Translations under genes and position numbers: made by a program
Origin: Rozella allomycis CSF55
Lineage: Eukaryota
Assembly (NCBI GenBank): GCA_000442015.1
Contig: KE560735.1
Coordinates: 1 to 49,532 of the forward strand
Direction: 5' to 3'
Length of the DNA stretch: 49,532 bases
In this document: piece by piece, positions 2,744 through 48,143 of the stretch
Numbering within the stretch: position 1 is the first letter of the stretch
Layout: the number at the start of each line of letters is the position of its first letter
The notes under the pieces: model-generated
Databases searched by the model: none
Told to the model about the DNA's origin: nothing
The model's input: only the letters and a program-made list of their open reading frames with translations

Positions 2744-5700
2744 TTAAAAAGAAGAATAATAAGATAAATAAAAGTAAGCGAGGGATAAAATACCACCAAT
2801 AACTGCTGTAGTCATAGCCAGTGAAGCATTCAAGGTAGTCTCGCTAACAGGTGAATTTATGACATACACCTTAATACAATTAATATTAGAATAGTACCAT
2901 GAATTCAGTTTGCAAATTGCAATAGCTGCCATCAATAAGAAAAACCTTGAAATGATACAATTCAGCGCCCATCCAAATTATGGATGTATTCGGCGATATG
3001 GGTAAAGAAGACACCGACGCGAAATCTGAACAATTATTTGATGCTTTTAAAAATTAATAAAAGGCTTACTGGTAAAGCAATAATCTTTTCTTCCATTAAC
3101 TTCCTCAAGAATGTAAGTTGCTGCCGATGATGTTGATGTCAGGTGTCCATCCTCGTATAGACCTAATTCTGGATTGTAATGAGAATAGTAATCCACGGGA
3201 TATACTTTTGATATGCAATCGCTAAATATTGATTTGAAAGTCATGTTGTAGCCGACTCCACAAGTGCAGTCATGTCTTGTTTTGGCCCCTAAACATTGTT
3301 TATATGTGCCTGAAGATCGGGAAACAGACATAAAATCATTATATCGGGGCATTGAAGGATCAGCGTTGTATAAATTGTCAGATGTCGGAACTGCTAAACC
3401 GTAAGATGAAGGAGGACGATAATTAACTGGAAGATCGATAAAGGAAGAAGGGTATTGATCGATATGTAAATTTGCTTTCAATGAAACTCTTCCATTACAT
3501 CCAACTGATACAACAAGAGGCGAAAATTCTTGAGTACAAGAAGAAGAATATTCTGATAATTGAAACATTAGATCAGTTTCACCCTAGAAATTATTTATCG
3601 AAAATAATCTTACAACAATTCCTTTATCATAAAGAGTTACATTCAATGTGTAATATATCAAGCCGGAATCGATTGATGTTGTCAAAATGGAAGACCTTTG
3701 AACGAGTGATGGATTGCTCAATACCACTGAAAGCCCGATATTTTCTGTTATTTTATCATTTCTGAATGCCACTCTTAACCAAACTTGTGCAGATCGATGT
3801 CGTTCGATTGTGATTGATGTTGTATTGTAACTTGTTTCAATGGATAAAACTTCGCAATCCAAACTCTTCAAGAAATATGGCGACGATCTCAAATAAGGAA
3901 CAGGAAACATGCCATAAACATAGTCTATTGTATTTCTAAACATCATCCATTCGCTTGATGCATAAGTTCCTGAAACCATTGGTGTGAAAAAAGAAACCTA
4001 TTTAATGGAACAGATAACATTACGTTTGCAGTAAAATTGCTGGTGACATTTGTAACAATACCAATAGTGTCATTAAATAAAATCATTTTGTGAAGATCGG
4101 CTGTTGAGAATTTCATAAATCCAGGGTCCAATGTGATCAGATATTGATTACCAACTAAAGAGGATACAGTAAGGTTTTGACTAAAAGTGTTAACATCATT
4201 AATAAAGCCTCTAAAATCGTAAATGTTGTAAGCGCCTGACGGTATGTTGTTCAAATCCCCAAGTACTAAACCTTGATGAGCAATATATCCTGTAGCATTG
4301 TATTTGTTTTGGATATCTGTAATTAGTATATTCAACGATTTGTATATTAAAGTTTTCCCTATAGAACTAAATACCCATCCTTCGGTAGAAGATGAACTTG
4401 ATTGTTGGAGTGAAAGAATAACAAAAGATTCATTTGTAAACATAATATTCAATTTAAATGTTAATGATGGCTCTTTTGAAGGAGCTTCTGGAATTAATTG
4501 ATTTTGGATTTGGCCAAATAAATTGGCAGGCGGTTTTGCGCTAACAATGGAAGAACCAGCAATTGAATTTGGTTGAGCATTTTGGGTTAAAAGAACTCTA
4601 TATAATGATGAGACGGACGAGTTAAAAATATTTAAATCATTTTTTGGGTCAGAAAGCGATTTATACACAAATTCAATATTCTTATCGCTTTTAACTATTG
4701 GAACAGCTGTATGCAATGGTTGAAATTCTTTTCCAGAATATATTGAGCGTCTCGGGATAATAATTCTCTTCAATATATCTTTTCTAAATGAATTTGTTGT
4801 TAAATCAAGAAATCCGAATTCTGTGCCATTTGTAGAATTGTACATCCCAAAATCAGTATGAAGTGCTAAAAGAAGACCTTCATTAGACAAATGGAAAAAA
4901 TGCTTTTGATTTGGATTGTAGTTTGGTAGATTGCTCATTGGCAATAGTTTATTTGATGAAACTTTACCAAAGAAAACCATTGAATGAGACGTAATAGCCA
5001 CTACAATGCTGTCTTGTTTACTCATAAGAATCCTTTCAAAAACATGGATACTACTATCATCGTTAAATTGATATTCACTCAAAGAAAATTGCTGCTCAAA
5101 TAGAAACCCTCCATCATTGGAACGCAAAAATTGTTCTCCATAAACAAACACAGTAAAGCGTGTGGGATGAAGCTTCATTCCTACCACAACCATTGAAGGA
5201 TCAAACATTTTAATGACTTGCTGGGAAGACAAAACATTATTAAAAGTTCTTAATATAATCGTCTGATTGTAAAGGCAAATATTGACTTCACAGTCGCCTG
5301 GATTATTTATAGGATTTCCAAATAAATAAAGATTTGCTTTAGTTGAAGGTATCGTAATGCTTGAAATCAATTTTAAAGTAGTATTCAAATTGAGTAAATT
5401 CCACTTACCCATTAATGCTGCTGAAACAGACGCAGTGTATATGCTAGTAGAGTTTACTATAACGTTCAATTCTTCGTTTCCTTCAGTATAACAATTTTCT
5501 TTAAAGTGTATCGCCAAATTAGTTGAATTTGTAAATGGCGCCCACGAAAATTTATATGCATTGGCGTTATTTCGAGCCATCGCAATCCCATAATTTGTTA
5601 AATAGAAAATAGATTTCTGCGCAAACTTAACATTTAGAATTTCTAACGCCTTGCATTGTGCTGAAGTCAGTCCAAAACAGATCGAGTCAGATAGTAAAGA

Positions 5701-6866
5701 TTCATTTCCCATTTCATTCAAACATAAATTGAAAATCTTTGTCGTCTTGAAAGAGTTGTCGGTAAAAGCAACAATGCACCCTGTGTAGTTTGACGCTGAT
5801 GTACGGAACAGCATTGCAGCGTTACTAGGATTGCATGGATTTGTGGATATAAAGACAGGATTAAATAGATCATTTCTCAAAGTATTGACTATATTTGCGA
5901 AATTGGATCCGCCAATGTTTCCATTCAAATAACAGGCGGGTGAATTAAGGTAAAGTCTTGGAAAAGTTACATCAACGGTAGTTGGAGCGACGCGGCATCC
6001 ACCAATTATGACTAAATTTTTCTTCACTTTTGCAGATATAGAGGCTTCGTTGGCTATGTAAGAATACGGAAAGTTGAATTCCCAAAAAGAATCATTATAC
6101 TGATAATATTCAAGTCATTCTCTTACCAATTTGCTACTGCTGTCCAATCGAAATTTATATGAGCTCCAATAGTTTGAAAAGGTTAAATCTAATTTAATTC
6201 CGTATTTGTGATATGCCCTCGTCCAGACTTCGTCATCAAATTCATTATTATCATTCAGCTTGCTTGTTGCCTGAACAAGGAGTGTCAAGTTCCCAGTAGC
6301 CGAAAATTGTGATCTAGGTGGTAATAGATATCGACCTTGAAAATCGAAACAATCTAATTCAGAATCACAGATGAACGTACAATTGTTGGAGCTGAATACT
6401 ACCAGCGCCTTTCCTATTGATGGTGCTGGTAACCCACTGGTGGTGAGGCCTGATAAATTGGGACCGTTGGCAATTATAAAAGGCTGGTCATTTACTGTCA
6501 CATTAATATGTTTCTTCCCAGGAGTCGTATAGCGGTGATTCCACGAGTATTCTAAAACTTCTTTACCAGTCAGTGGGCCAGTCAAGGAGGTGACAGGTTG
6601 CCCGTCATCATCAAATTCACCATATTGAGTATAAACAAAATATGACTGATTTAAGACGAGAAACGAATTAATTAAACTGATTTTAATTTCTGGCTTAAAT
6701 ATCTTAATTAATAATTACCTTGACCATCCACCACTTCGCTTCTGTAACTGGAAATAAGCATAGATAGTTTGGGATAAGAAGAGGGTAAATTATTCATAAA
6801 ACAATTGAGACCATTGAAATATATTAAGACGAAAAAAAGTAAAAATGACACCTTTTCCCCCATCAT
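2744..6866 (-). CDS. CATSPERB: CatSper channel auxiliary subunit beta orthologue (7 exons, ~1318 aa)
   Basis: Exons 6866-6719, 6689-6127, 6099-4024, 3997-3614, 3583-3070, 3043-2898 and 2869-2744 join in frame through 26-30 nt GT-AG introns. Signal peptide MMGEKVSFLLFFVLIYFNGLNC. C-terminal motifs LPVNYRPPSSYGLAVPTSDNLYNADPS, GTYKQC, FSDCISKV, GAELYHFKV..GSYCNLQTEFMVYV and TM AMTTAVIGGILSLAYF match the CATSPERB C-terminus as I recall it. Confidence 0.88.
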
Positions 6867-11077: not shown

Positions 11078-11169
11078 TAAGCTTTAATAAAGCATTTTAG
11101 TAGCAATGATGTGCTTAATTTGAGTAATATTGTTCTTTGAGTCGTTTCATTGTTTTGTTGGATACCGAA

Positions 11170-11625
11170 ATGGATGTGGACTACTTGAAGCAAACAGTGG
11201 CATTGCCTTTAAAGAAGGCAATTTTGCAGACAACAATTGTTCAACCAGTGGATCCAATTGAATTCATGGCCCAATATTTACTTTCCCATACAAAATACGA
11301 AAAAGCTAGAGATCTTGAAACCACTGTGAAAAAAGATTTCCAGACCAGACTTAATGACATCCATGAACTAAAGAAAATCCACAATAGAAAGAACGCCGAG
11401 CTATCTACGGAAGAAAAACCGGAATCATCAGATGTTCTTGTAGAAAATGAAAAGCATTTAATAGATGAATCTAAGCCCGATACAGTAACAATTGAAAGTC
11501 CAAAGGAGAATACGGAAGAACTAGAAGAAGCTGTTATCGAGAGCAGTTTAAGTAATAAAGACAGTAGAGTGGCACAAGACGAGCAAGTTAATCCTGATGC
11601 CGAAGAAAGCGCTCAAGATGTATGA
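11170..11625 (+). CDS. DPY30-domain protein (DYDC/radial-spoke-like)
   Basis: N-terminal Dpy-30 motif DYLKQTVALPLKKAILQTTIVQPVDPIEFMAQYLL, then coiled coil and an acidic tail. Confidence 0.75.
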   Translation: MDVDYLKQTVALPLKKAILQTTIVQPVDPIEFMAQYLLSHTKYEKARDLETTVKKDFQTRLNDIHELKKIHNRKNAELSTEEKPESSDVLVENEKHLIDESKPDTVTIESPKENTEELEEAVIESSLSNKDSRVAQDEQVNPDAEESAQDV

Positions 11626-12789: not shown

Positions 12790-14732
12790 TTATTTTAACA
12801 CTTTTCGGCAATTCTGGTACGATCTGATGGAACCCAAAACTTTCCAAAGTTTGTGATAAACATTCTTCAGGTAGACAACTGCAACATTTTCTTCATCATG
12901 AGTGAAATCATCGCTTGCTACAAACAAACCTTCAATCGATAAGTGATTTTCATCCGCAATGGGTTTCCAGGTTTCGAAAAATCTAGTCCATGAATTGTAA
13001 GTGCTGGCGATAGTCACCTGGATTCCAACAATTGCCGTCTCAGTCACTAAAACCATATCAACGCCAGCATAATTGTAAATATGTGGGTCATACAATCTCC
13101 AATGATCTTGTGTAGAAGGAATGAATGTACCCTTCTCCCTCCCAGGCATGAAAAACTTTCTCTCTATCACGATGTAATTCTTTTTAATATACTTTGATAT
13201 TCCATCTCTGCAGACTACTGCTTTAATAACGTCACCTACCAAAAAGCAAAAACTAGATCCATTGAGAGTGTAGCCTTTCAAGAGATGCGGCCAATTTGTT
13301 ATGATCTGATTATCAGCTGCCTTCATTTTCCAAACAGAATATAGCAGGGTGGTTGATATTTCACCTGTTGCCAACAATTGGCCATGATTCACATAAAAGA
13401 AGCGACGGTCAATATGGTCTTTCTCAATAACCATTGACTTTGAAAGTAGGGCATAATAAACCTTCCAAACAATCGCAGCGTCAAAAGGCTTGTAAAATTG
13501 AACCAGGCAGTCTTTGAATTTCTTAATTCTGATGTCTGCCATCACAGCTTCCACAAGTGAATCCCACGTAATGTTCTCGTGATAAAGCGATTCGAAGATG
13601 GAAAGATATAATGGGACCCGGCCAGTCAAGCGCACTAGTTCATCTTTGTTTACTTCAAATAGTTTCCGATTCAAGGTTTCTGTTTGATTCTTTATCCATT
13701 CACTAAATTCCTCTTCGTCAAATCCGCCATAAAAGAAAATGTTGGTCTCGCTTTGTTCCTTGTTCTTCATCAAATTCCACACAGTTGAGTTCATTGACAT
13801 TCCCTTGACAATACATTTCATAGGCCCAAACAGCTCAAAAAATCGGTGCCTAATAGACTCGTACTCTTTCGCATCAATTGAGTTCCATTGGTCAGCAATC
13901 ACAATCCATTTGTACTTGTTAGTCGCAATTATCGCACAAACTTGATCATAATTGGAGACACTTGGGAACAGCATTTTAAATGCCAAAAAAATTGTTTTCT
14001 TATAGTCAGTCAATAACTGGCTGCAACTAGGGATGTAAATAACAGGATACTTTTCTTTTGTCAATTGAGCTGCCAAGGCTGCTAACATATACGATTTTCC
14101 AAAGCCAACAGTTCCAATAACATTCACACATGAACTTGACGGGCCATTGCGCGTCTCTTTAATTGTTTTCCAAAGAGATTGAAGGCAATTTCTTCCCTGG
14201 TATGTAAAACATCTATCTTTGTCCAAGGAAAAGAGATCGGTTTCTTGTATTATTGACGCAAAAGGGACAGACATAATATGTTTCAGAGCCAATAAATTTT
14301 CCTTTACATTGCGAATGCCAGAGAGTAACTTGGCACTACTGAAATCGTTAGATATCTCCGCGGTTCCCAAAGTCCCTTCTAACTTTACATTATTCGCATA
14401 GTTTTACCAGAAGGAGCATCGTTACTTTTTTTTTCTATAAAATCATCGAAAGCAAGCTTCATCTTTTTTGGTGCGAAATCTTCTGTATGTAAGGATTTCA
14501 CACTTTCAGCCCCTAAATATTATCAACCAGTAACTGGATCCTTACTTTTTCGGTGTATATAGTTGTAGATAGCACGTCCCTCTGATCCAAACTCGGCGAC
14601 CCAATCCTCTTTGGTAAAGTCCTTTAAAACTTCAAAGGAAAATTTTTGGAAAAAGGACTTAATTGATTTCACTTGTGATTCATTGCTTAGGTTGACCTCT
14701 ATCCACTGAATGAGTTGTTCTTTGTTTTCCAT
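12790..14732 (-). CDS. Crinkler (CRN/CR)-type effector: helical header + P-loop NTPase + REase-fold nuclease (~626 aa)
   Basis: Walker A GTVGFGKS, Walker B WIVIADQWN, TGRVPLYL, and nuclease-like YAGVDMVLV...GIQVTIA. The header exon (...EGRAIYNYIH) joins in frame through introns 14513-14545 (33 nt) and 14379-14407 (29 nt). Confidence 0.8.
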
Positions 14733-26751: not shown

Positions 26752-36525
<9,774 letters not shown>

Positions 36526-38007: not shown

Positions 38008-41000
38008 TTAGGTTTTATTACTGACACCCTTTGACTGGTTGTACTCGTTAATGGACATTTTCAAATGTTCAGATAATTTGGATGAATTAATGTAGCCTCC
38101 AACACTGGTAGCTTCTGTCAAGTCTCGGAGACATTGGCATGTCATTTTGAACTTGTCAAGTCGCTTTTGATAAGCCTCCCGCACAAATGGTTTGAGACTT
38201 TTGTTGTTTGCTATTAGAGAGATCTGTAGCTAGTACCTTTCAGATACATGGCTAGAAATTCAATAGCCGACTGATCAAGTGTCTTTGAAGGATGCTTTGG
38301 TCTGATACTGCCAACAGAGACGAGTGCTTTGTTAATCATATCGCCAAGGTTCTGTTCAATGTAGCCTAGTGTCGGTAAACCCTTCACATCGATCCCTACA
38401 ATTGGCGGTGGAAGTTTATGAGGTAGCTTCAAGTCTACGTATTCCCAAGGTTGTCTATGAAAATCAATTAAATGAATCGTACTGCATAAATTCATCTTGT
38501 GCTGCAGCATTGATGAATGCGTATGTGTTGCCTTTGTATTCTACACAATGCAGCAACTCGCCCTTTACAATTGATTCAAATCTAGCATGAATGTTTTCCA
38601 AAACTTGTACTTTGAGCCATAGTTTTTAAATGTTACTGGGCAGTATCCTCGGAATGCTAGCTCGGGCGGTTTCTGAAAGAATGTAAACTTTTTCCGCAAG
38701 GGAACATCCTCTGGAATATTCTTTTCATTTGTTGCGTAGTACTGTGGATTGTTGATAAACTTTTCTTTGCAACCTTCACCTCCAAGAAAGTAGTAGAGAT
38801 CCTCTTTATATTTTCAAATCAATTTACGTTAAATTCAACGATGAGATTTTCATTGTAAGAATCAAATAATAAAAGTTTGTTGTGATCTACAAAATGAACT
38901 GGGCAATAAAGTTTAAATTTTGATTGGTGTGATTCAACGTAGTCATGATGTACACCGCAATTTAGGATGCACGCTGGTTTGTCTATTAAACTTAATTGAT
39001 GCAGTTACTATTATTTCTGGTATGAATAAATTCTTGTCGTTTTCTTATAGAATTAGATACAAAGCCGGCCAATGTATCATACACTTTCCATTTGCTTTGT
39101 GTAGAATCCACGTAAAAAGTAATAGAACGCCCATAGTCATAAGTTTCTTTGATGTAACATTCATTCTTTTCGTATTTTTGATATCGTTTCTCTATTTCCG
39201 CTTTAGATTCCAAACAAATATCATATTGGATGTTTTTCTTCAACAAAGCCTCTTGAAATGACAATATATCGTTAGAACTTCTGTTTAGTGATGTTTCTAA
39301 ATTGCAAGTAAGCAGCAGAACACAAGAAGGTAATATACCCTCATTTTCTAGCTCATTAAGCTCAGATTCTTCTTCAGGGAAGCCTTCCAGAATCCAACCT
39401 TTTGATAAGCAGTCCCGCTGTCTTAAAACTGATTTCAAGCATTGCATTAGCAAAGGCAAGGGGACTGTACCTCCCGAACACATTGAATCTAACAGCTGAC
39501 TTTTTAAAAAGCAGCGGTTTTCTTTTGCCAAAATTCTATCCAAAATTTTATTAACAGAAAGATTAACAAATCCAAAACGTTGTTCTAATCTGTTTGCCAT
39601 CGTGGTCTTTCCAGATTTTGGTGGGCCAAGAATAAACGCTGATGGTGGTGATTTTGAAGATGCTGACTTTTGATTAATGTATTTGAGAGGATTCTTAATA
39701 AATTCCTCTAAAGTTTTAGCAACAATCTTACCTTGGCTTGGGCCTTTGATTTTACGGAGTACAGTTTTCTGTCAACAACAAACATTCTTTCACCAATAGA
39801 AGAATGGCAAAAGAAACCATCTCTAAAGTACTCTACTGGGCAATACTTTCCAAATGAGCTTGTTTGAACAAAACCATTATTTAACAACGACTTTGCATTC
39901 TTTTTAGTCAGGGGAATCGCATTACAAAATATGCTTTCCCTCTAGAAATCTTTTAAGTTATATATTTTTACCCCTTGTAAATAATTGTTTAATTTGGATT
40001 TTATCTTGAATTCTGATATTCTCAATGCTCTCTCGGCTTCAACAGATACCACAGGCATTTTCATTGCAGATTTCAAATATTCCACAATTTCTTCTTGTTG
40101 TTCACATTCTTTTTCATAAATATTCTTTAGTTCCGATATAGCGAAATCTCCGACGTTTTCAATATCTTTTTCTTGGCCTTGATCCATTTCTTTTGATCTT
40201 GCATTAAAGTATTAAATTAAGGCTACTTTTCAATTCGCAGCTTTAAAGATTCAAAATGAGAATTGAAGTTTCTTTTAATGTAAATGGCTTCATTATTTAA
40301 TTTAACATCAATAAGTGCATCAGGCTGATACCCAAAGTGATCCAACATTTCAGCTTCTTTTCTGGTTTTAGGAAACCCTTCAATTAAAAAAGACTGGAAA
40401 TCAATTAATTTATAGATTACTTTACTAAATAAGTCGTCCATTAATCTTTGAAACATCTTTTCAGGAAGGAATTCAACTTCTCCTTTCATGAATGAGTTAA
40501 TTGTATTAATATCATTCTGATCAGAAAATTCAGTTCTTTTTTCAGCAAGATATTGATTATAATTTATAATCGGTGTTTCAGCTATCTTGGAAATTCTATG
40601 TAGTATTTCAGTCTATCCATAACAATTCAGATTGAATACCTTTCCAGACTTTGTTGGACCGATGCAAACAATTCTTGTCTTGGGGATTTGAATTGACTCG
40701 TCAAAATTTGTATAATATTCAGGCGAATTCATAAATGCTTCCATTTTCTCTTTCGTACACATCAAGTATATTTTATTCTTTTCTAAATTCCCTGTTGGTT
40801 TTACTTTATAGAGAACCGCCAAAGTCAAATCGCCCTTAATCAAGACATTTCTTTCTATAAAAGATACGACGCAAAAATCTTTGGTAAACCCAAAATGCAA
40901 ATTCGGATTATTCAAAGCTCCTTCATCGAGCAAAATATTCGCTTTGTTTTAAGGAATAATCGTTTACCAGGAATCGGGGTCAAAACATCAAATGCTTTCC

Positions 41001-42965
41001 TCACGCTATGCAACAGCATTTGTAACTTTTTTTCGGCTTTTAGAACTGAAAAACTTGTAGAAAGTATTTCTTTAAACGAATCAATTTGCGAGACAATTTT
41101 TTCATTCAACTGCTGATAAAACTCTTTCTCGGGCGTCTCAAATAATCCTTTTGGTTCTTCAATAGCTTCCTTGAATTGTTTAAATTCTCTAAAGAGTAAA
41201 GGATTTGTATCATTTATTTCTCTTTTGATTAGTTTATTATGTTTTAGGCTGAAAACGTTGACAGGTTTTGAATCGATTTCATCAGATTGAATGAAGATTA
41301 AATGATCTATATTTTGCTGTTCAGTAAAAATTTTGAGCTTTAATGACTAAATAAGAGCCTGTTTTACTTGGTTTGCATCTACAATGAAGCCATCAATAAT
41401 GAAACTGGTCAAACTTTTCTCTTTGATATACGAAATCAAATCATTTTCATCAATTTCTTCTCCGTTAAATAGTTTTTCAAATTATATTTAAATTATCAAT
41501 TTACCTTGACATTTTTCGTTATCTAACAACGTTTTATAATCAATCAAATCAATATTGTAGATTTTTGATATTGCCTGTGCTAAATGACTTTTTCCAGACA
41601 ATGGAGACCCAGTTATTACTAATCTAAAATCTCGTTTCAATGGATTTGCTATTAAATATTTATCAGGGAACACTGTAAATTTATTGAAGGCGTCAATGTC
41701 GCTCATATAGTAAACTTGATTCTGAAATCATTTATTGAATAAATCACTCACTTGGTATAACACAGCCAAACTGTTCTTTCCTTCTGTTAATATCCCAGAC
41801 GTAGCAAAAGTGACGGGGCAGTAGATTTTGAACTTTCCTAACGTCTTCTTTGGCGATGACAAAGCGTCACCATCAACTGACAAATGCTTTGTTACTACAT
41901 CTTCTTTTGCCATGTCATCAAAAATTTCTCTATCTTCTTCGACGACTAATTGTTTTGGTCTACAAACTGGTGGAACTAGATTCAACCTGTTGAGAAAGTC
42001 ATCTATACACCCGAAGATTTCTTCCACAGTTTGACTCCCATCAATGCAAATAGAATTGCTAATGGGAATAATGCTCTTCAATTTTGAAATTAAATTGCCT
42101 GACATATTATACCTTTCCAGTTCCTTAGATATGTTGTGGTTAAAGTTTAATGGATCTTTGACCAACCTTTCTAATACATCAAATGTCATTTTTGGCTTTT
42201 TCATTTTTATTTTCTTCCCCTCTTCACCATCATTTTCTTCATCCTCGTCGTTATCTCTTTCATTTTCCATTTCTTCTTGTTCATCCCCATCCTCATCACT
42301 TTTTACAGATTCTAGATCAATATCCTCATCATCTTCTTCATTTTGTAAAATACTATCTTCCTTTTTTTCATTTTCATCGGTCTCATCATCATCATCTTCA
42401 ATGTTCGAGTTTCTCTTTTTTTGCGCAAAATATTTTTTAGCGTATTGAACCTCTTCTTCTGTATACTGTGAAGATGTCACATGATCAAAATATAAAATTG
42501 TTCGCGATTCAGTGATATCGGAATCTTCAAATTCAATTTCACAGAAAAGCGGTTCTACTTGGTACTCTTGGAGTTTGTTAAAGATACATCCAAATTTATC
42601 TTTTATAACGCCCATCATATCACTATTTATACATAAGCTTTCAAGGTTGTACAGTACACACCCTCTTTTGATTGCAATGATATGTGTACCTTGAAAGATT
42701 GTTTCATCACTTGTAAGAGTTTCACAAAGTAACTCTAAAGCAGACAAAGGATCACATGCTTCTCCACAATACATAAGTTCCATAATCTGAAATATTAAAT
42801 GAGTCGAAGTACTTTGTCTTTCGCCTTGGATGCCGAAAAATTGAAAGCATTTTCAACGTTCAATACCTTCAAAGCATATTCTTTCTCAAGCAGCTTTGTT
42901 ACTTTGTCTAAATCAGGTGACGCTTTAGAATGAATAATTATAAATGGCTTTCGGCTTGGATTCAT
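38008..42965 (-). CDS. AK9: Adenylate kinase 9 (multi-domain flagellar AK), many introns
   Basis: Repeated AK P-loops (GSPLSGKS, GPTKSGK, GPPKSGKTT), YCPV/YHS-like modules, an acidic insert, and C-terminal KLPHKLPP..LPTLGYIEQ..KALVSVGSIRPKHP..SAIEFLAMYLK|ANN. Confidence 0.88.
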
Positions 42966-43098
42966 TTGTTTATCTTTGGACAAAAACCTGGTATTAAATT
43001 GAAATGACGTTAAGCTCAACATACAAAAAAATTTAAATTGAAATGGTGATATTAATTTGACAAATACCAAAAATATCTTTTATTTAGATTTTATGTTC

Positions 43099-44358
43099 TC
43101 ATTTTTTACTTAGATATCGATCTTCATCTTCATGAGACCCATAAAAGTCATAAAAATTCTTTTCAAAATTAACCGTATCCGATTCTTGTTGTGAATTGAC
43201 GTTATAGAAACTATTTTCAGCGTTCAACAGGGTCAAATCATCATTTTGACGCGCTTGTTTCTTGTTCATGAATGGTGTATCCAAAGTGGCAAGAGGTGAC
43301 AAAAGGTATTCTCTCTGTCCCCCTAAAGATGGAAAAGAACTGGGTGTTTCTACATTTTCATCAAAAAAGCGATTTATCTTGCGTGAAAAGGGAGTTAAAA
43401 AGTCCTCATGAAAAACTTCACCATTTTTTACGTTGTATGAATCATAGCCGTCAGGGGCTACCTCAGAATCGACCTCGTCAGGATTCTCTTCATTATCATC
43501 ACCTTCTTCATGGTAATCTTCATCGTCATCTTCTTCATAAATATTCCCACTATTCTCTAAATCAATGGCTGGTGCTTTTTTAGATGGGCGTTTGCCGTAT
43601 GTAATTCCTTCTTCTTCTTCCTCTGCAGCACTAGATTCTGAATAGGTTTGGCTCTCATCATGATCTTGATCATCTACTTCTTGTAAACCACCGACGCTTC
43701 CAAATTTACTACGGCCTTTTTTCCCTTTAGATGGTCTTTTTCCGTTTTGCATTTTACTATTGATAGGACCTCTTTTGCCGCGTTTTCCAGATCTTTTTCC
43801 GTTTGATTTCACCAATTCAAAATCATCACTATCCTCACCATCAAACGATTGAGAACTAAACAAAAAAATGTATATTGAATACTTTGAAACTTCTTTACCA
43901 TTAATTTCTACAATGGTAGGTATACTCTCCACTAATTTTGATTCATTAATCCCTGTATCTTCTATTGCGACACTAATAAGAAGTGGAAGATCAGCCTGAT
44001 TATATCATATATCTTCGATTACCAATATATCGATGCAAATATCATCAAGAGGATTTCCACGTAAATCTACTTCAACAAGAGCTGTGCATTTTTCAATTCC
44101 AGCAATACTTTTTAACTCATTAAAAGCAACGTTTAAATGTTTCAGCTTTAAAAGTTTCGGTAAGCCTAGTAATGATGATAACGAGCAGCCTTCCAAGGAT
44201 AATGTTGACAAGTTGAAAAAGTTGTGGAGAGAGAATGGCAGTTTTGGATCTGCAATAAGAGAAAGGGAAGGAAGATAGCAATCATCGAGTATCAACTGCG
44301 TCGTATGCAATGGCGAATGAGAAGAAAGAATCTCTAAAGCCGTGGGTTCCTTTGGCAT
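43099..44358 (-). CDS. ANP32-like leucine-rich-repeat protein with acidic tail
   Basis: LILDDC...LSLEGCSLSSLLGLPKLLKLKHLNVAFNEL...EKCTALVEVDLRGNPL, followed by D/E tracts and basic NLS-like clusters. Confidence 0.75.
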
Positions 44359-44913
44359 GGTGTGGCTAAGTTGTTTGGTTTCAGATCCTGGTCAGAACTA
44401 AATTGGTGATTTCAGAAATTTTCAGAATCGAATTGGCATTATTCTGAACGTTTTAGCACTACTTAATTACAATACAAAAAACTTTAACATGATCTGTTTG
44501 TATTCCACTTTAAAATTTAATCGCAAACTAAAACATATACAATAAGGTTCATAGGCGGCAGAGCGATGGCGAGCGGGTGATTGGGGGATGTGCGTGGGGT
44601 GGTAAGCCGGGGCTGTGGACGGCTTCGTATGCATAATGCAACAGTGAAGATATGAAACTTTAAAGTAGCTATGGAGTCGCTGATTGGAATCCTAGAAGTC
44701 ATTTACCTCATCTGATCATTTATTCATTTACGAGTTATTATGTCGCTTATCACCAAATTACAAACACTTTGCGGATGTCCATGTCCAGAACCAACTATAT
44801 CATGACTTGTGCACTATTAAAAGCGGTGCTTTGACACATTGAAAGTAAATTATAGACGCAAGATTTGGATTTACTCATAAAAAACAAAAAAATTCCGCCA
44901 GGCCCCAAGCCAC

Positions 44914-46476
44914 ATGAAACTTTTATTTTACAGCTGTTTCATGATTATATTAGCATCTTGTATTGCCACCAATTTGTTAGCCAAAAAGGGGCATATTCAT
45001 GACTTGTCAGAGGAAACGGTGTCACGCATCTGCTACAACTTGGACGTTAGTTCCTTCTTTCGATTTCAAAGAACCTGTAAACGTTTTCATAAAAGCGCGC
45101 TTGAGAATCAAGAATTGTTTGAAATCCAAAAAGAATATGCTAATTCCTTAAAAAATTCACCTTTTAGAAACATTAAAGGAGGATTTTTCCTTGAAGATGT
45201 TGTTAGAAAGGTCAAGCGATTTTTTGGGGAAAGACAACTCAAAGTGAAAGGGATCACCAAGAGAATAAATTTCCCCGATTTTTACGCATATCTTATTGCT
45301 AATAGTATGGACAACTGCTATTTGCTTAAGACTATTTTCGCGGAACTTAAGATTAGCACAACCGTAAAATTGGTCGAAGTTACGGAATATATGTTAAGAA
45401 GTGACATTTTCGATTCTGCTGGCTTGGATAAATTTTATAGCGGTGATTTTGTGGAGAAATATAAAAAATTGAAGTTTGAGCTGATTACAATTTTAGGCAT
45501 CGGTTATGGGAAATTTCGATTGGGATATGTAGATTTCTTTTCTTTCCAAAACTTGAATATCAATTTCGATTTAGTGCTTGAAGATTGTGTGGAAAGATCT
45601 GCTTTACTCACGCTTGCATTTATTAACAAAGAATTCGTCAGATCTTCAACTAATTTTATCATTAGTCAAATGCAAAAGTATGTAGTAGATATGGAAAATT
45701 CTTATGCAGAAAAAATTCGTGGATTGGGTATAGAAAGTAGACGCTCGTTTGTGTTTGAAACATCACAAGCGAAGCCTCTGTTTTCCGATGAAATGATTAT
45801 TTTGGAAATTTTAAGATTTGATAACTTAGATGCGCTTATTTCATTATACAAAAATAAGCCATTAAGAGTCAAAACCCCTCGCAATCTTGAAAACGCGATT
45901 AAATTAAAGTCTGTGAATATTCTACTTAATTGGGGATTGCTAATAGATAAGGGCGACATAAATAATGAGATACAGTTGAATGAAAGACGGGAAATAATGG
46001 ACAAAATCCTTAAAAGAGGAGATTATTCACTGTTACAAAGCTTGCTACAATCATTTGACAAGTACGTTCAACTCACGGTAGAATCTATTAATTCTTTAAA
46101 TTTATTTCTATTGGAAAACATGGACATAATGCAAAACGTTGGCGACTTTAGCTTTTTCGTTAAGCTAGCTGACAACTACATATTTAAATTCAAAAATTAT
46201 CATGACAACGATATTAAAATAGAATGCATTGCGTTAGGAGATGTCCTGCTTCAATTATCTGAGAAAGTTGGCGAGCAAAATGACTCACTTGACCAGTTGA
46301 TCGTTCGAATCATTAATGAATTTCCAGTTGAATACTTTCCTCTCTTAGCGTCTATACACTTACAAATAATCAATTATATAGCTGCTCACCCTCACCAAAT
46401 AGAACTTTCAGGTGAGCGCAAAAATGAACTAAATCGTGTCTTGCAAGATGATGTGATGCAACTAGATGAGGTCTGA
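44914..46476 (+). CDS. Secreted F-box-like protein (520 aa), candidate effector
   Basis: Signal-peptide-like MKLLFYSCFMIILASCIA, then F-box-like IHDLSEETVSRICYNLDVSSFFRFQRTCKRFH and a helical C-terminal region. Intronless. Confidence 0.7.
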   Translation: MKLLFYSCFMIILASCIATNLLAKKGHIHDLSEETVSRICYNLDVSSFFRFQRTCKRFHKSALENQELFEIQKEYANSLKNSPFRNIKGGFFLEDVVRKVKRFFGERQLKVKGITKRINFPDFYAYLIANSMDNCYLLKTIFAELKISTTVKLVEVTEYMLRSDIFDSAGLDKFYSGDFVEKYKKLKFELITILGIGYGKFRLGYVDFFSFQNLNINFDLVLEDCVERSALLTLAFINKEFVRSSTNFIISQMQKYVVDMENSYAEKIRGLGIESRRSFVFETSQAKPLFSDEMIILEILRFDNLDALISLYKNKPLRVKTPRNLENAIKLKSVNILLNWGLLIDKGDINNEIQLNERREIMDKILKRGDYSLLQSLLQSFDKYVQLTVESINSLNLFLLENMDIMQNVGDFSFFVKLADNYIFKFKNYHDNDIKIECIALGDVLLQLSEKVGEQNDSLDQLIVRIINEFPVEYFPLLASIHLQIINYIAAHPHQIELSGERKNELNRVLQDDVMQLDEV

Positions 46477-46522: not shown

Positions 46523-47707
46523 TTATTGGCCATTTAAACATTCTTCATTCAAGAGATCTTTAGCCATTACCAAATCTAATTTTGAAACAGACTTATCTTT
46601 ATTCAAAAGGTCTTTCGAGGCATAAATAATTTTCTTAGAATCGAAATGCATTCGGATATATTCTTTAACCTCGGAAATCGGTGCCACAGTAGTTTTAAAA
46701 CGCCCGCCCAATAATCTATCCGGTACGCTTTTATCAAAGAGAAAATACGGATGAAACGTAGAACCTGCCTTGTACAAGCCGTCTTCTATTGGAGTGTTAG
46801 GCAATATGAAATGTTTTTCAGCCTCTAAGGGCGTAAATTCTAAATAATAAGCTATGTAGCTGTCCTGTCTAAGGTACCCATGGGTGCAAGCAAGATTTGT
46901 TAAATCACCATTTCTGTAAAAATATCCAGCAAAGAGAGTGTATGAATATGAATAAATAATAGCAAGAGCATTATTTCTTGGGTTGAGAACTGAAGAACGT
47001 ATCAATTCGCAAATGTCCTCGCCCTTCTTGCTCATTATTAGGGGATCCAGGGCGACCTTTTCCTTGCCATCTACTATTGTTTTAATTATTTTTGTAGATC
47101 TATAAAGCAATATCTTATTGTTTTGTATCGCATTCATTTCTGCCTTTACTAGAGTTTCGTAGACTGAATCACTAATGAAAGGCCCCTTGTAACATCCAGG
47201 CAAGTTTGTATTTAACATAAATTTTTGATAAATTTTAGCAGAAAGATCATAATCATTGGGCGAAATGTGTGACATTTCAAGATACCCTTGATACTCAATG
47301 AACAATTTAAGAAAGTTGTAAAATTGAAATGTGCTACTGTATAAAAATGAATTTGGAATTTGATGTGGACCTTCCGCATAGTCATTATGCATTTGAATAG
47401 CGAATAGTTCGAAAACTGTTGAAGGTACTTTTAGAACACCTACAAACATGTCGTTTTCCAAATGGATTCCGGTTTTTAGCTGATTATCGATTTCAGTAAA
47501 GTCTCCTTTAAACACAGGCCATGTATACTCTTTCAGAATCTTAAAACACTCTATTTCTACTGATGACTTAGTTTCTGAAAACAGAGAGTTGTAAATTGTG
47601 TTTTCGGATTCTTCAAGTGGTGCTATAAGACCGGATCTATCCGCTACAAATGGTATGTGCACGACAGACGTTGCTACCACCGCAAGTAGAATCCAAAAAA
47701 AATTCAT
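46523..47707 (-). CDS. Secreted protein (394 aa) with ADP-ribosyltransferase-like motifs, candidate effector
   Basis: Signal-peptide-like MNFFWILLAVVATSVV, then ILLYRS ... YSYSYTLFAG ... GSTFHP. Intronless. The ORF is solid; the fold assignment is tentative. Confidence 0.55.
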   Translation of the reverse strand: MNFFWILLAVVATSVVHIPFVADRSGLIAPLEESENTIYNSLFSETKSSVEIECFKILKEYTWPVFKGDFTEIDNQLKTGIHLENDMFVGVLKVPSTVFELFAIQMHNDYAEGPHQIPNSFLYSSTFQFYNFLKLFIEYQGYLEMSHISPNDYDLSAKIYQKFMLNTNLPGCYKGPFISDSVYETLVKAEMNAIQNNKILLYRSTKIIKTIVDGKEKVALDPLIMSKKGEDICELIRSSVLNPRNNALAIIYSYSYTLFAGYFYRNGDLTNLACTHGYLRQDSYIAYYLEFTPLEAEKHFILPNTPIEDGLYKAGSTFHPYFLFDKSVPDRLLGGRFKTTVAPISEVKEYIRMHFDSKKIIYASKDLLNKDKSVSKLDLVMAKDLLNEECLNGQ

Positions 47708-48143
47708 GTGGCTTGTTCGTGAATAACTTATTTAGAGGCTTGTTTCCTTTCCATAGATTTCTGAATTACTTAAGCCATATCATTGATTATAAGCGATAAT
47801 CGATCAGAAAGTTTTTCTTCATAGATATTGGAATCGTACCAAAAATGATAATTTGCTCTAAATCTATTCTATCAGATTTTCAGAATGTGTTTCCATAGAG
47901 TATAATTCGCTGAAAAGCTGGNTTTCCATAGAGTATAATTCGCTGAAAAGCTGGCAATATTTAAAAATAAATCAACGCTGCAGATTTACCCTATAGTTTT
48001 TGGAATAAACGGCATTTCTTGAAACAATTGACATATTTAAGTAAGATAAGTTTGTTTTATGTTGAAAAAATATAATTTTGAGTGAGATTTTTTGTTCACC
48101 TATTTTCTATCTTCAAATTACAAATTTCAATCACCCTGGCATT

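Follow-up and report, generated by a model that had tools for sequence, protein, structure and literature searches.

The genome of Rozella allomycis CSF55 contains a seven-exon gene that sequence and fold support as an ortholog of CATSPERB, the β subunit of the CatSper Ca2+ channel, together with what is, by sequence, a near-complete set of the other CatSper genes. The β gene lies in a 49,532-nt stretch of DNA (contig KE560735.1, positions 1 to 49,532), which was analyzed as a whole and is called the window here. In our opinion, the gene set probably encodes a working flagellar CatSper in Rozella zoospores, with the β protein as its subunit.

The β gene occupies positions 6866-2744 on the minus strand and is divided by six GT-AG introns of 26-30 nt. 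Exon 1 (6719..6866; aa 1-50) encodes a predicted signal peptide and the first PKD-like strand, as judged from the hydropathy of aa 6-24 and the N-termini of homologues. It is followed by intron 1 (6690..6718, 29 nt, GT-AG) and by exon 2 (6127..6689; aa 50-237), which carries a predicted PKD-like β-sandwich (about aa 50-150) and the subsequent N-terminal region. Exon 3 (4024..6099; aa 238-929) accounts for the β-propeller and head region according to homologues and Foldseek. Exon 4 (3614..3997; aa 930-1057) has no Pfam CATSPERB match and, from its position, probably forms an Ig-like domain. Exon 5 (3070..3583; aa 1058-1229) encodes the cysteine-rich stem (CATSPERB_C). Exon 6 (2898..3043, 146 nt; aa 1229-1277) supplies the segment GAELYHFKV..GSYCNLQTEF, and exon 7 (2744..2869; aa 1278-1318) ends the gene with the membrane helix (about 2821-2765), a 6-residue tail, and a TAA stop at 2746-2744. 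The remaining introns are intron 2 (6100..6126, 27 nt), intron 3 (3998..4023, 26 nt), intron 4 (3584..3613, 30 nt), intron 5 (3044..3069, 26 nt), and intron 6 (2870..2897, 28 nt), all minus-strand and all shared with the public gene model; introns 2 and 4 are in frame, and each contains a stop.

The joined coding sequence of 3957 nt is open and specifies 1318 residues plus the stop, which bears out the seven-exon, approximately 1318-residue protein that an earlier note on this DNA had proposed. Introns of this size are normal in the Rozella genome, because the public models of four further genes in the same genome imply 23 introns, 19 of which measure 26-31 nt. In a second assembly the same frame is open, with 11 substitutions in 1253 residues. 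At the level of sequence, these observations confirm the seven-exon CATSPERB gene as real and intact. One RNA run yielded a single 40-base partial match to the gene, with no junctions; its word overlap with the gene is near zero, and the run says nothing either way.

The signal peptide and single C-terminal transmembrane helix that had been claimed for the protein agree with the hydropathy profile (19-residue windows), in which the top segment is aa 6-24 (1.95), followed by aa 1294-1312 (1.73), with the next peak at 1.21. Hydropathy and the alignment of homologues together point to a type I topology. The protein contains 28 N-glycosylation sequons.

It should be noted that the protein already deposited for this locus, EPZ35838 (UniRef A0A075AZY2), differs from the seven-exon model at both ends. 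The two are identical over residues 50-1302 (1253 in a row) and share five of the six introns; junction 1 and the stop differ. EPZ35838 starts at an internal ATG and uses a 25-nt first intron, so that exon 1 is nearly all absent and there is no signal peptide. At the other end, an extra intron removes part of the last exon, with the result that half of the helix is lost and an unrelated tail is gained. The 25-nt intron relies on a second acceptor 4 nt upstream of that of intron 1, with which the frame of the signal peptide is broken. A profile built from seven hand-picked homologues, the Rozella protein being excluded, gave 42.9 bits for the signal-peptide form, 33.9 for the public start, and 33.2 for exon 2 alone. 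Thus, exon 1 raises the homologue-only score by 9 bits, and it aligns with the N-termini of the homologues P0008, P0020, P0038, and P0019. The whole C-terminal helix is present in 14 of the 14 homologues aligned at the C-terminus. Homology of the sequences therefore favours the ends of the seven-exon model over those of the public one. An alternative hydrophobic frame ahead of the public ATG was rejected, since it has no start codon and scores 33.3 bits against 33.2.

The correction bears on the idea that the β gene is decaying, that its product is non-anchored as in the public model, or that the contig derives from a fungal host. In its favour, neither public model has the signal peptide or a complete helix. 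Nevertheless, homologues align both with the exon for the signal peptide and with the entire helix, two assemblies have an open frame, and the GC content of the locus (32-35%) and its 26-30 nt introns agree with the remaining genome. We consider this explanation extremely improbable. The corrected model is of practical use, as a protein made according to the public model would be unable to get to the membrane. In the table of PMC13358043, a signal peptide is given for none of its nine CATSPERB proteins, which hints that truncated CATSPERB models are widespread.

The identity of the gene is indicated by several lines of evidence. Exon 5 matches Pfam CATSPERB_C (PF15149) with an E-value of 1.1e-32 and 113.9 bits against a cut-off of 27, and exon 6, to which the motif noted above had been assigned beforehand, matches positions 188-217 of the same profile on its own (E 2e-4). 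The public protein P0001, which is 99% identical to the predicted β protein and whose UniRef cluster includes EPZ35838, already labelled as a CATSPERB C-terminal domain protein, scores 143 bits against CATSPERB_C (cut-off 27) and 19.6 against CATSPERD-E_C, under the cut-off of the latter. Both PDB sequence matches of P0001 at E<=1 are mouse CatSper-β chains, and the stem region aligns with mouse β residues 855-1076.

For the propeller and head, the direct match of exon 3 to CATSPERB_2nd (E 0.003) lies under the Pfam cut-off, and recognition comes through homologues and fold. Searched alone, the 692 residues of exon 3 retrieved 31 other proteins, 28 of which carry CATSPERB domains; γ, δ, or ε domains were found in none of the 31 at E<=0.001. 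Eight of the ten exon-3 homologues looked up belong to zoosporic fungi. A structural model of exon 3 (pLDDT 79.5) placed CatSper-β chains at ranks 1 and 2 in Foldseek (E 4e-24 and 1.5e-22), followed by two other chains of 7EEB and then by generic propellers. The TM-score of this model against mouse β is low (0.40, rmsd 17 Å), which indicates that the orientation of domains in the model either differs or is poorly predicted. Neither the NTD profile (PF21541) nor the Ig-like profile (PF22831) of Pfam matches the Rozella protein, and a weak NTD match appears in P0008 just past the PKD-like region. Internal repeats seen by eye in the head region were dismissed, as a profile of the conserved segment matched each of 20 proteins once. 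On this combined evidence from sequence and modelled fold, the CATSPERB orthology suggested in the earlier note is supported.

The mouse protein (PDB 7EEB chain E, 9UBW chain E) resembles that of Rozella in having a stem with an LP-NYRPPS motif and cysteines, an ELYHF/ELFHF motif, a single C-terminal helix, and the propeller and head fold, with a structural identity of about 15% across the middle region. At 1318 residues, the Rozella protein is longer than the 1109-residue mouse CATSPERB, the difference including about 130 extra residues ahead of the propeller and about 110 ahead of the stem. Unlike mouse CATSPERB, it has a predicted PKD-like domain after the signal peptide. CATSPERB proteins of chytrids, monoblephs, and blastoclads (for example KAL2912102, KAI8799872, and KAL7754410) fall in the same length class, have the same domain order, and are 20-26% identical to the Rozella protein over most of its length.

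These other fungal proteins begin with a PKD or PKD-like region, whereas the PKD-like domain of Rozella is under Pfam detection, with no match to PF00801 or PF18911. A Pfam PKD domain is found near the N-terminus of 3 of the 31 homologues, and aa 30-150 of the Rozella protein align with the PKD region of homologues. The exon-2 model is a β-sandwich of pLDDT 66. When it was compared with 48,161 chains in VIA, a PKD domain ranked first (Z 6.6, rmsd 2.4, 73 residues aligned), with other Ig/FnIII sandwiches coming within 1 Z of it; Foldseek returned no match for this model at E<=0.001. From the alignments and the model we infer that fungal β subunits carry an added PKD-like N-terminal domain. Proteins and carbohydrates are frequent binding partners of PKD domains. 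A literature search by title or abstract start for papers joining CatSper and the PKD domain produced none on such an extension.

The earlier note had proposed a search for pore subunits and for relatives of the γ, δ, and ε subunits, and both are represented in the genome. An Ion_trans search of the genome (G000) gave 12 matches among 13 candidates, distributed over 8 loci. Four of these loci encode single-domain channels, each with an Asp in its filter (T-x-D-x-W), so that the complex is not refuted by a lack of pores. The protein of C555 (filter TLDRW) has mouse CatSper2 as its best match over the whole length (E 8e-62). Among single-domain channels, the best matches are CatSper4 for C265 (TQDGW), CatSper3 for C583 (TADSW), and CatSper1 for C518 (TLDNW), although for these three the chains of four-domain Cav and Nav channels beat CatSper on summed bits. 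A tree was built from 24 of the 54 channel proteins available, and in it C555 groups with named CatSper2 (FastTree support 1.0) and C265 with named CatSper4 (0.95); C583 pairs with the partial C518 protein, named CatSper1 and CatSper3 being absent from the tree. The assignment by sequence is accordingly firm for CatSper2 and CatSper4 and weaker for CatSper1 and CatSper3. The public C518 model (L020) has 244 residues and ends ahead of the pore; exons for the pore and S6 follow it, as read by eye. Classification of single pore exons through the PDB was abandoned because Cav/Nav and bacterial channels dominated the matches, and full-length public models were used instead.

G000 also encodes predicted auxiliary subunits, namely γ (E 9e-13), an ε-type protein (E 6e-21, with CATSPERE_NTD2 over its cut-off), θ (TMEM249; E 1e-8), and a τ-like protein with a CTSRT domain (E 4e-5). 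The mammalian CatSpermasome components found in Rozella thus comprise pores 1-4, β, γ, ε, θ (TMEM249), and a τ-like protein, and EFCAB9 is listed for Rozella in the table of PMC13358043. Unlike in the mammalian CatSpermasome, one δ/ε gene was found, of the ε type, which fits the later origin of δ described in PMC5362262. With a single δ/ε gene, the canopy cannot have the four-subunit make-up seen in mammals. The profiles PF15020, PF22844, PF12929 (Mid1), and PF08016 gave no matches in the genome; three of them were silent in controls, and PF15020 missed a gene that matches directly, so that these results are not proof of absence.

Two further Ion_trans loci have GYGD filters, as in K+ channels. 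Matches to the voltage-sensor half only were seen at L006:1423-1971 and L010:1321-1887, the first of which appears by eye to be Hv1-like and might act with CatSper as a pH partner. The Ion_trans search of G000, which proceeded exon by exon in an assembly that may be incomplete, revealed no four-domain Cav, and a query with a fish Cav matched only at C555 and C265 (4 matches among 6 candidates). These sequence searches hint that no Cav or Cch1 is left in the Rozella genome. The metagenomic proteins P0081, P0082, P0085, and P0088 are single-domain channels of 269 aa whose filter is TLDNW; they may be prokaryotic relatives of BacNav that are naturally Ca2+-selective.

The β gene itself is not new. 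The 2026 supplement of PMC13358043 already lists EPZ35838 under CATSPERB, and its table has EPZ34913 under CATSPER2, EPZ34868 under EFCAB9, and an EPZ entry under TMEM249. EPZ36251, the C265 protein, is filed there under CATSPER3, contrary to its sequence, which indicates the CatSper4 type. The C583 and C518 proteins are missing from the table, and for ζ and TMEM262 it gives no fungal homologues. Among the papers searched, PMC13358043 was the only one to combine CatSper and Rozella; subscription papers were outside the search, so the four-pore set may be in print. A term search of the main texts of PMC12638846, PMC13674862, and PMC13484710 found no discussion of fungal CatSper. What is added here is the corrected gene model, two pore candidates, the PKD-like extension, and the finding of no four-domain Cav.

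CatSper had been described beforehand as occurring in a few non-animal flagellates including Allomyces. Its report in Allomyces holds (10.1101/230292), but the surprise was overrated, as PMC13358043 now records CatSper across flagellated fungi and includes the Rozella β protein itself under CATSPERB. The proposal that an AK9 gene and a DYDC-like gene in the window support a flagellar complex stands in part. Both genes are present: a multi-exon adenylate kinase at 38992-44004 (minus strand), one exon of which has AK9 as its best named PDB match (E 7e-31), and a DYDC-like protein with a Dpy-30 motif (E 6e-7) and an acidic tail at 11128-11625 (plus strand). The other CatSper genes, however, are on other contigs, and proximity to AK9 and Dpy-30 therefore shows a flagellate genome only. 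The AK9 match ranks just under a 1910-aa chain labelled CFAP276, perhaps mislabelled.

The rest of the window is varied. Immediately downstream of the β gene lie a WD40-repeat gene (995-2580) and a tRNA-Met (882-954), both on the minus strand. A very large HECT ligase with HECT and UBM domains, which we take to be HUWE1/Tom1-like, extends over 27128-36126 on the plus strand; GC skew reaches an unusual +0.37 to +0.59 over 27-32 kb and is mostly <0.25 outside 27-35 kb. An intronless 537-aa P-loop ORF at 12790-14403 (minus strand) has a weak match to nSTAND_NTPase5 (E 0.004) and by eye resembles a Crinkler-type module. Two convergent intronless ORFs with hydrophobic leaders, at 44881-46476 (plus strand; weak F-box match, E 0.008) and 46523-47731 (minus strand; no Pfam match), may encode secreted proteins that act on the fungal host.

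The Rozella β protein is best read as a glycosylated type I membrane protein composed of a signal peptide, a PKD-like domain, an N-terminal domain, propeller, head, Ig-like domain, stem, and one helix. By analogy with mammalian CatSper, the helix would pack against one of the voltage sensors in a CatSper1-4 heterotetramer, and the ectodomain would join γ and ε in a canopy required for assembly and flagellar delivery. The Asp in all four filters suggests that the complex is a Ca2+-selective channel. Ca2+ entry in the zoospore flagellum may then alter the beat while the zoospore swims to and settles on its host. In Allomyces, sperm chemotaxis requires Ca2+ influx (PMC4685582).

It could be that the complex is real and serves gamete fusion in a cryptic sexual stage, as proposed for Allomyces, and not infective zoospores. 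Animal CatSper is sperm-specific, and Allomyces expresses homologues of CATSPERB, G, and D during its sexual stage (10.1101/230292). Yet the cycle described for Rozella in PMC6899921 comprises only the infective zoospore, an intracellular stage, sporulation, and resting spores, the infective zoospore being the motile stage described, and CatSper, while patchy, is widespread in zoosporic fungi (PMC13358043). A sexual role therefore seems quite improbable to us. It is likewise improbable that the intact complex acts outside the flagellum, that is, in the cell body or during encystment or attachment to the host, where the large ectodomain would serve adhesion or ligand sensing. The PKD-like domain at the tip of β would suit such a role, and with no four-domain Cav found CatSper might serve general Ca2+ entry; against this, PMC13358043 records CatSper orthogroups in flagellated fungi only, and a τ-like trafficking factor is retained.

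A flagellar CatSper in zoospores is the reading that we prefer. Heterologous expression of CatSper has resisted attempts (PMC5362262), and a smaller set with one ε-type subunit is a candidate for reconstitution. A bolder and rather unlikely proposal is that CatSper is the sole voltage-gated Ca2+ channel of Rozella and works in asexual infective zoospores, where the PKD-like tip of β would read host cues for steering and settling. If this were true, the ancestral job of CatSper would be target-finding by any flagellated cell, and sperm would be a late special case. Rozella, an obligate intracellular parasite, belongs to the deepest branch of the fungi (PMC6899921). The occurrence of a predicted near-complete CatSper set on that branch, in a parasite whose infective spore is its described motile stage, makes it testable whether a general role in flagellar steering preceded the role of CatSper in sperm.
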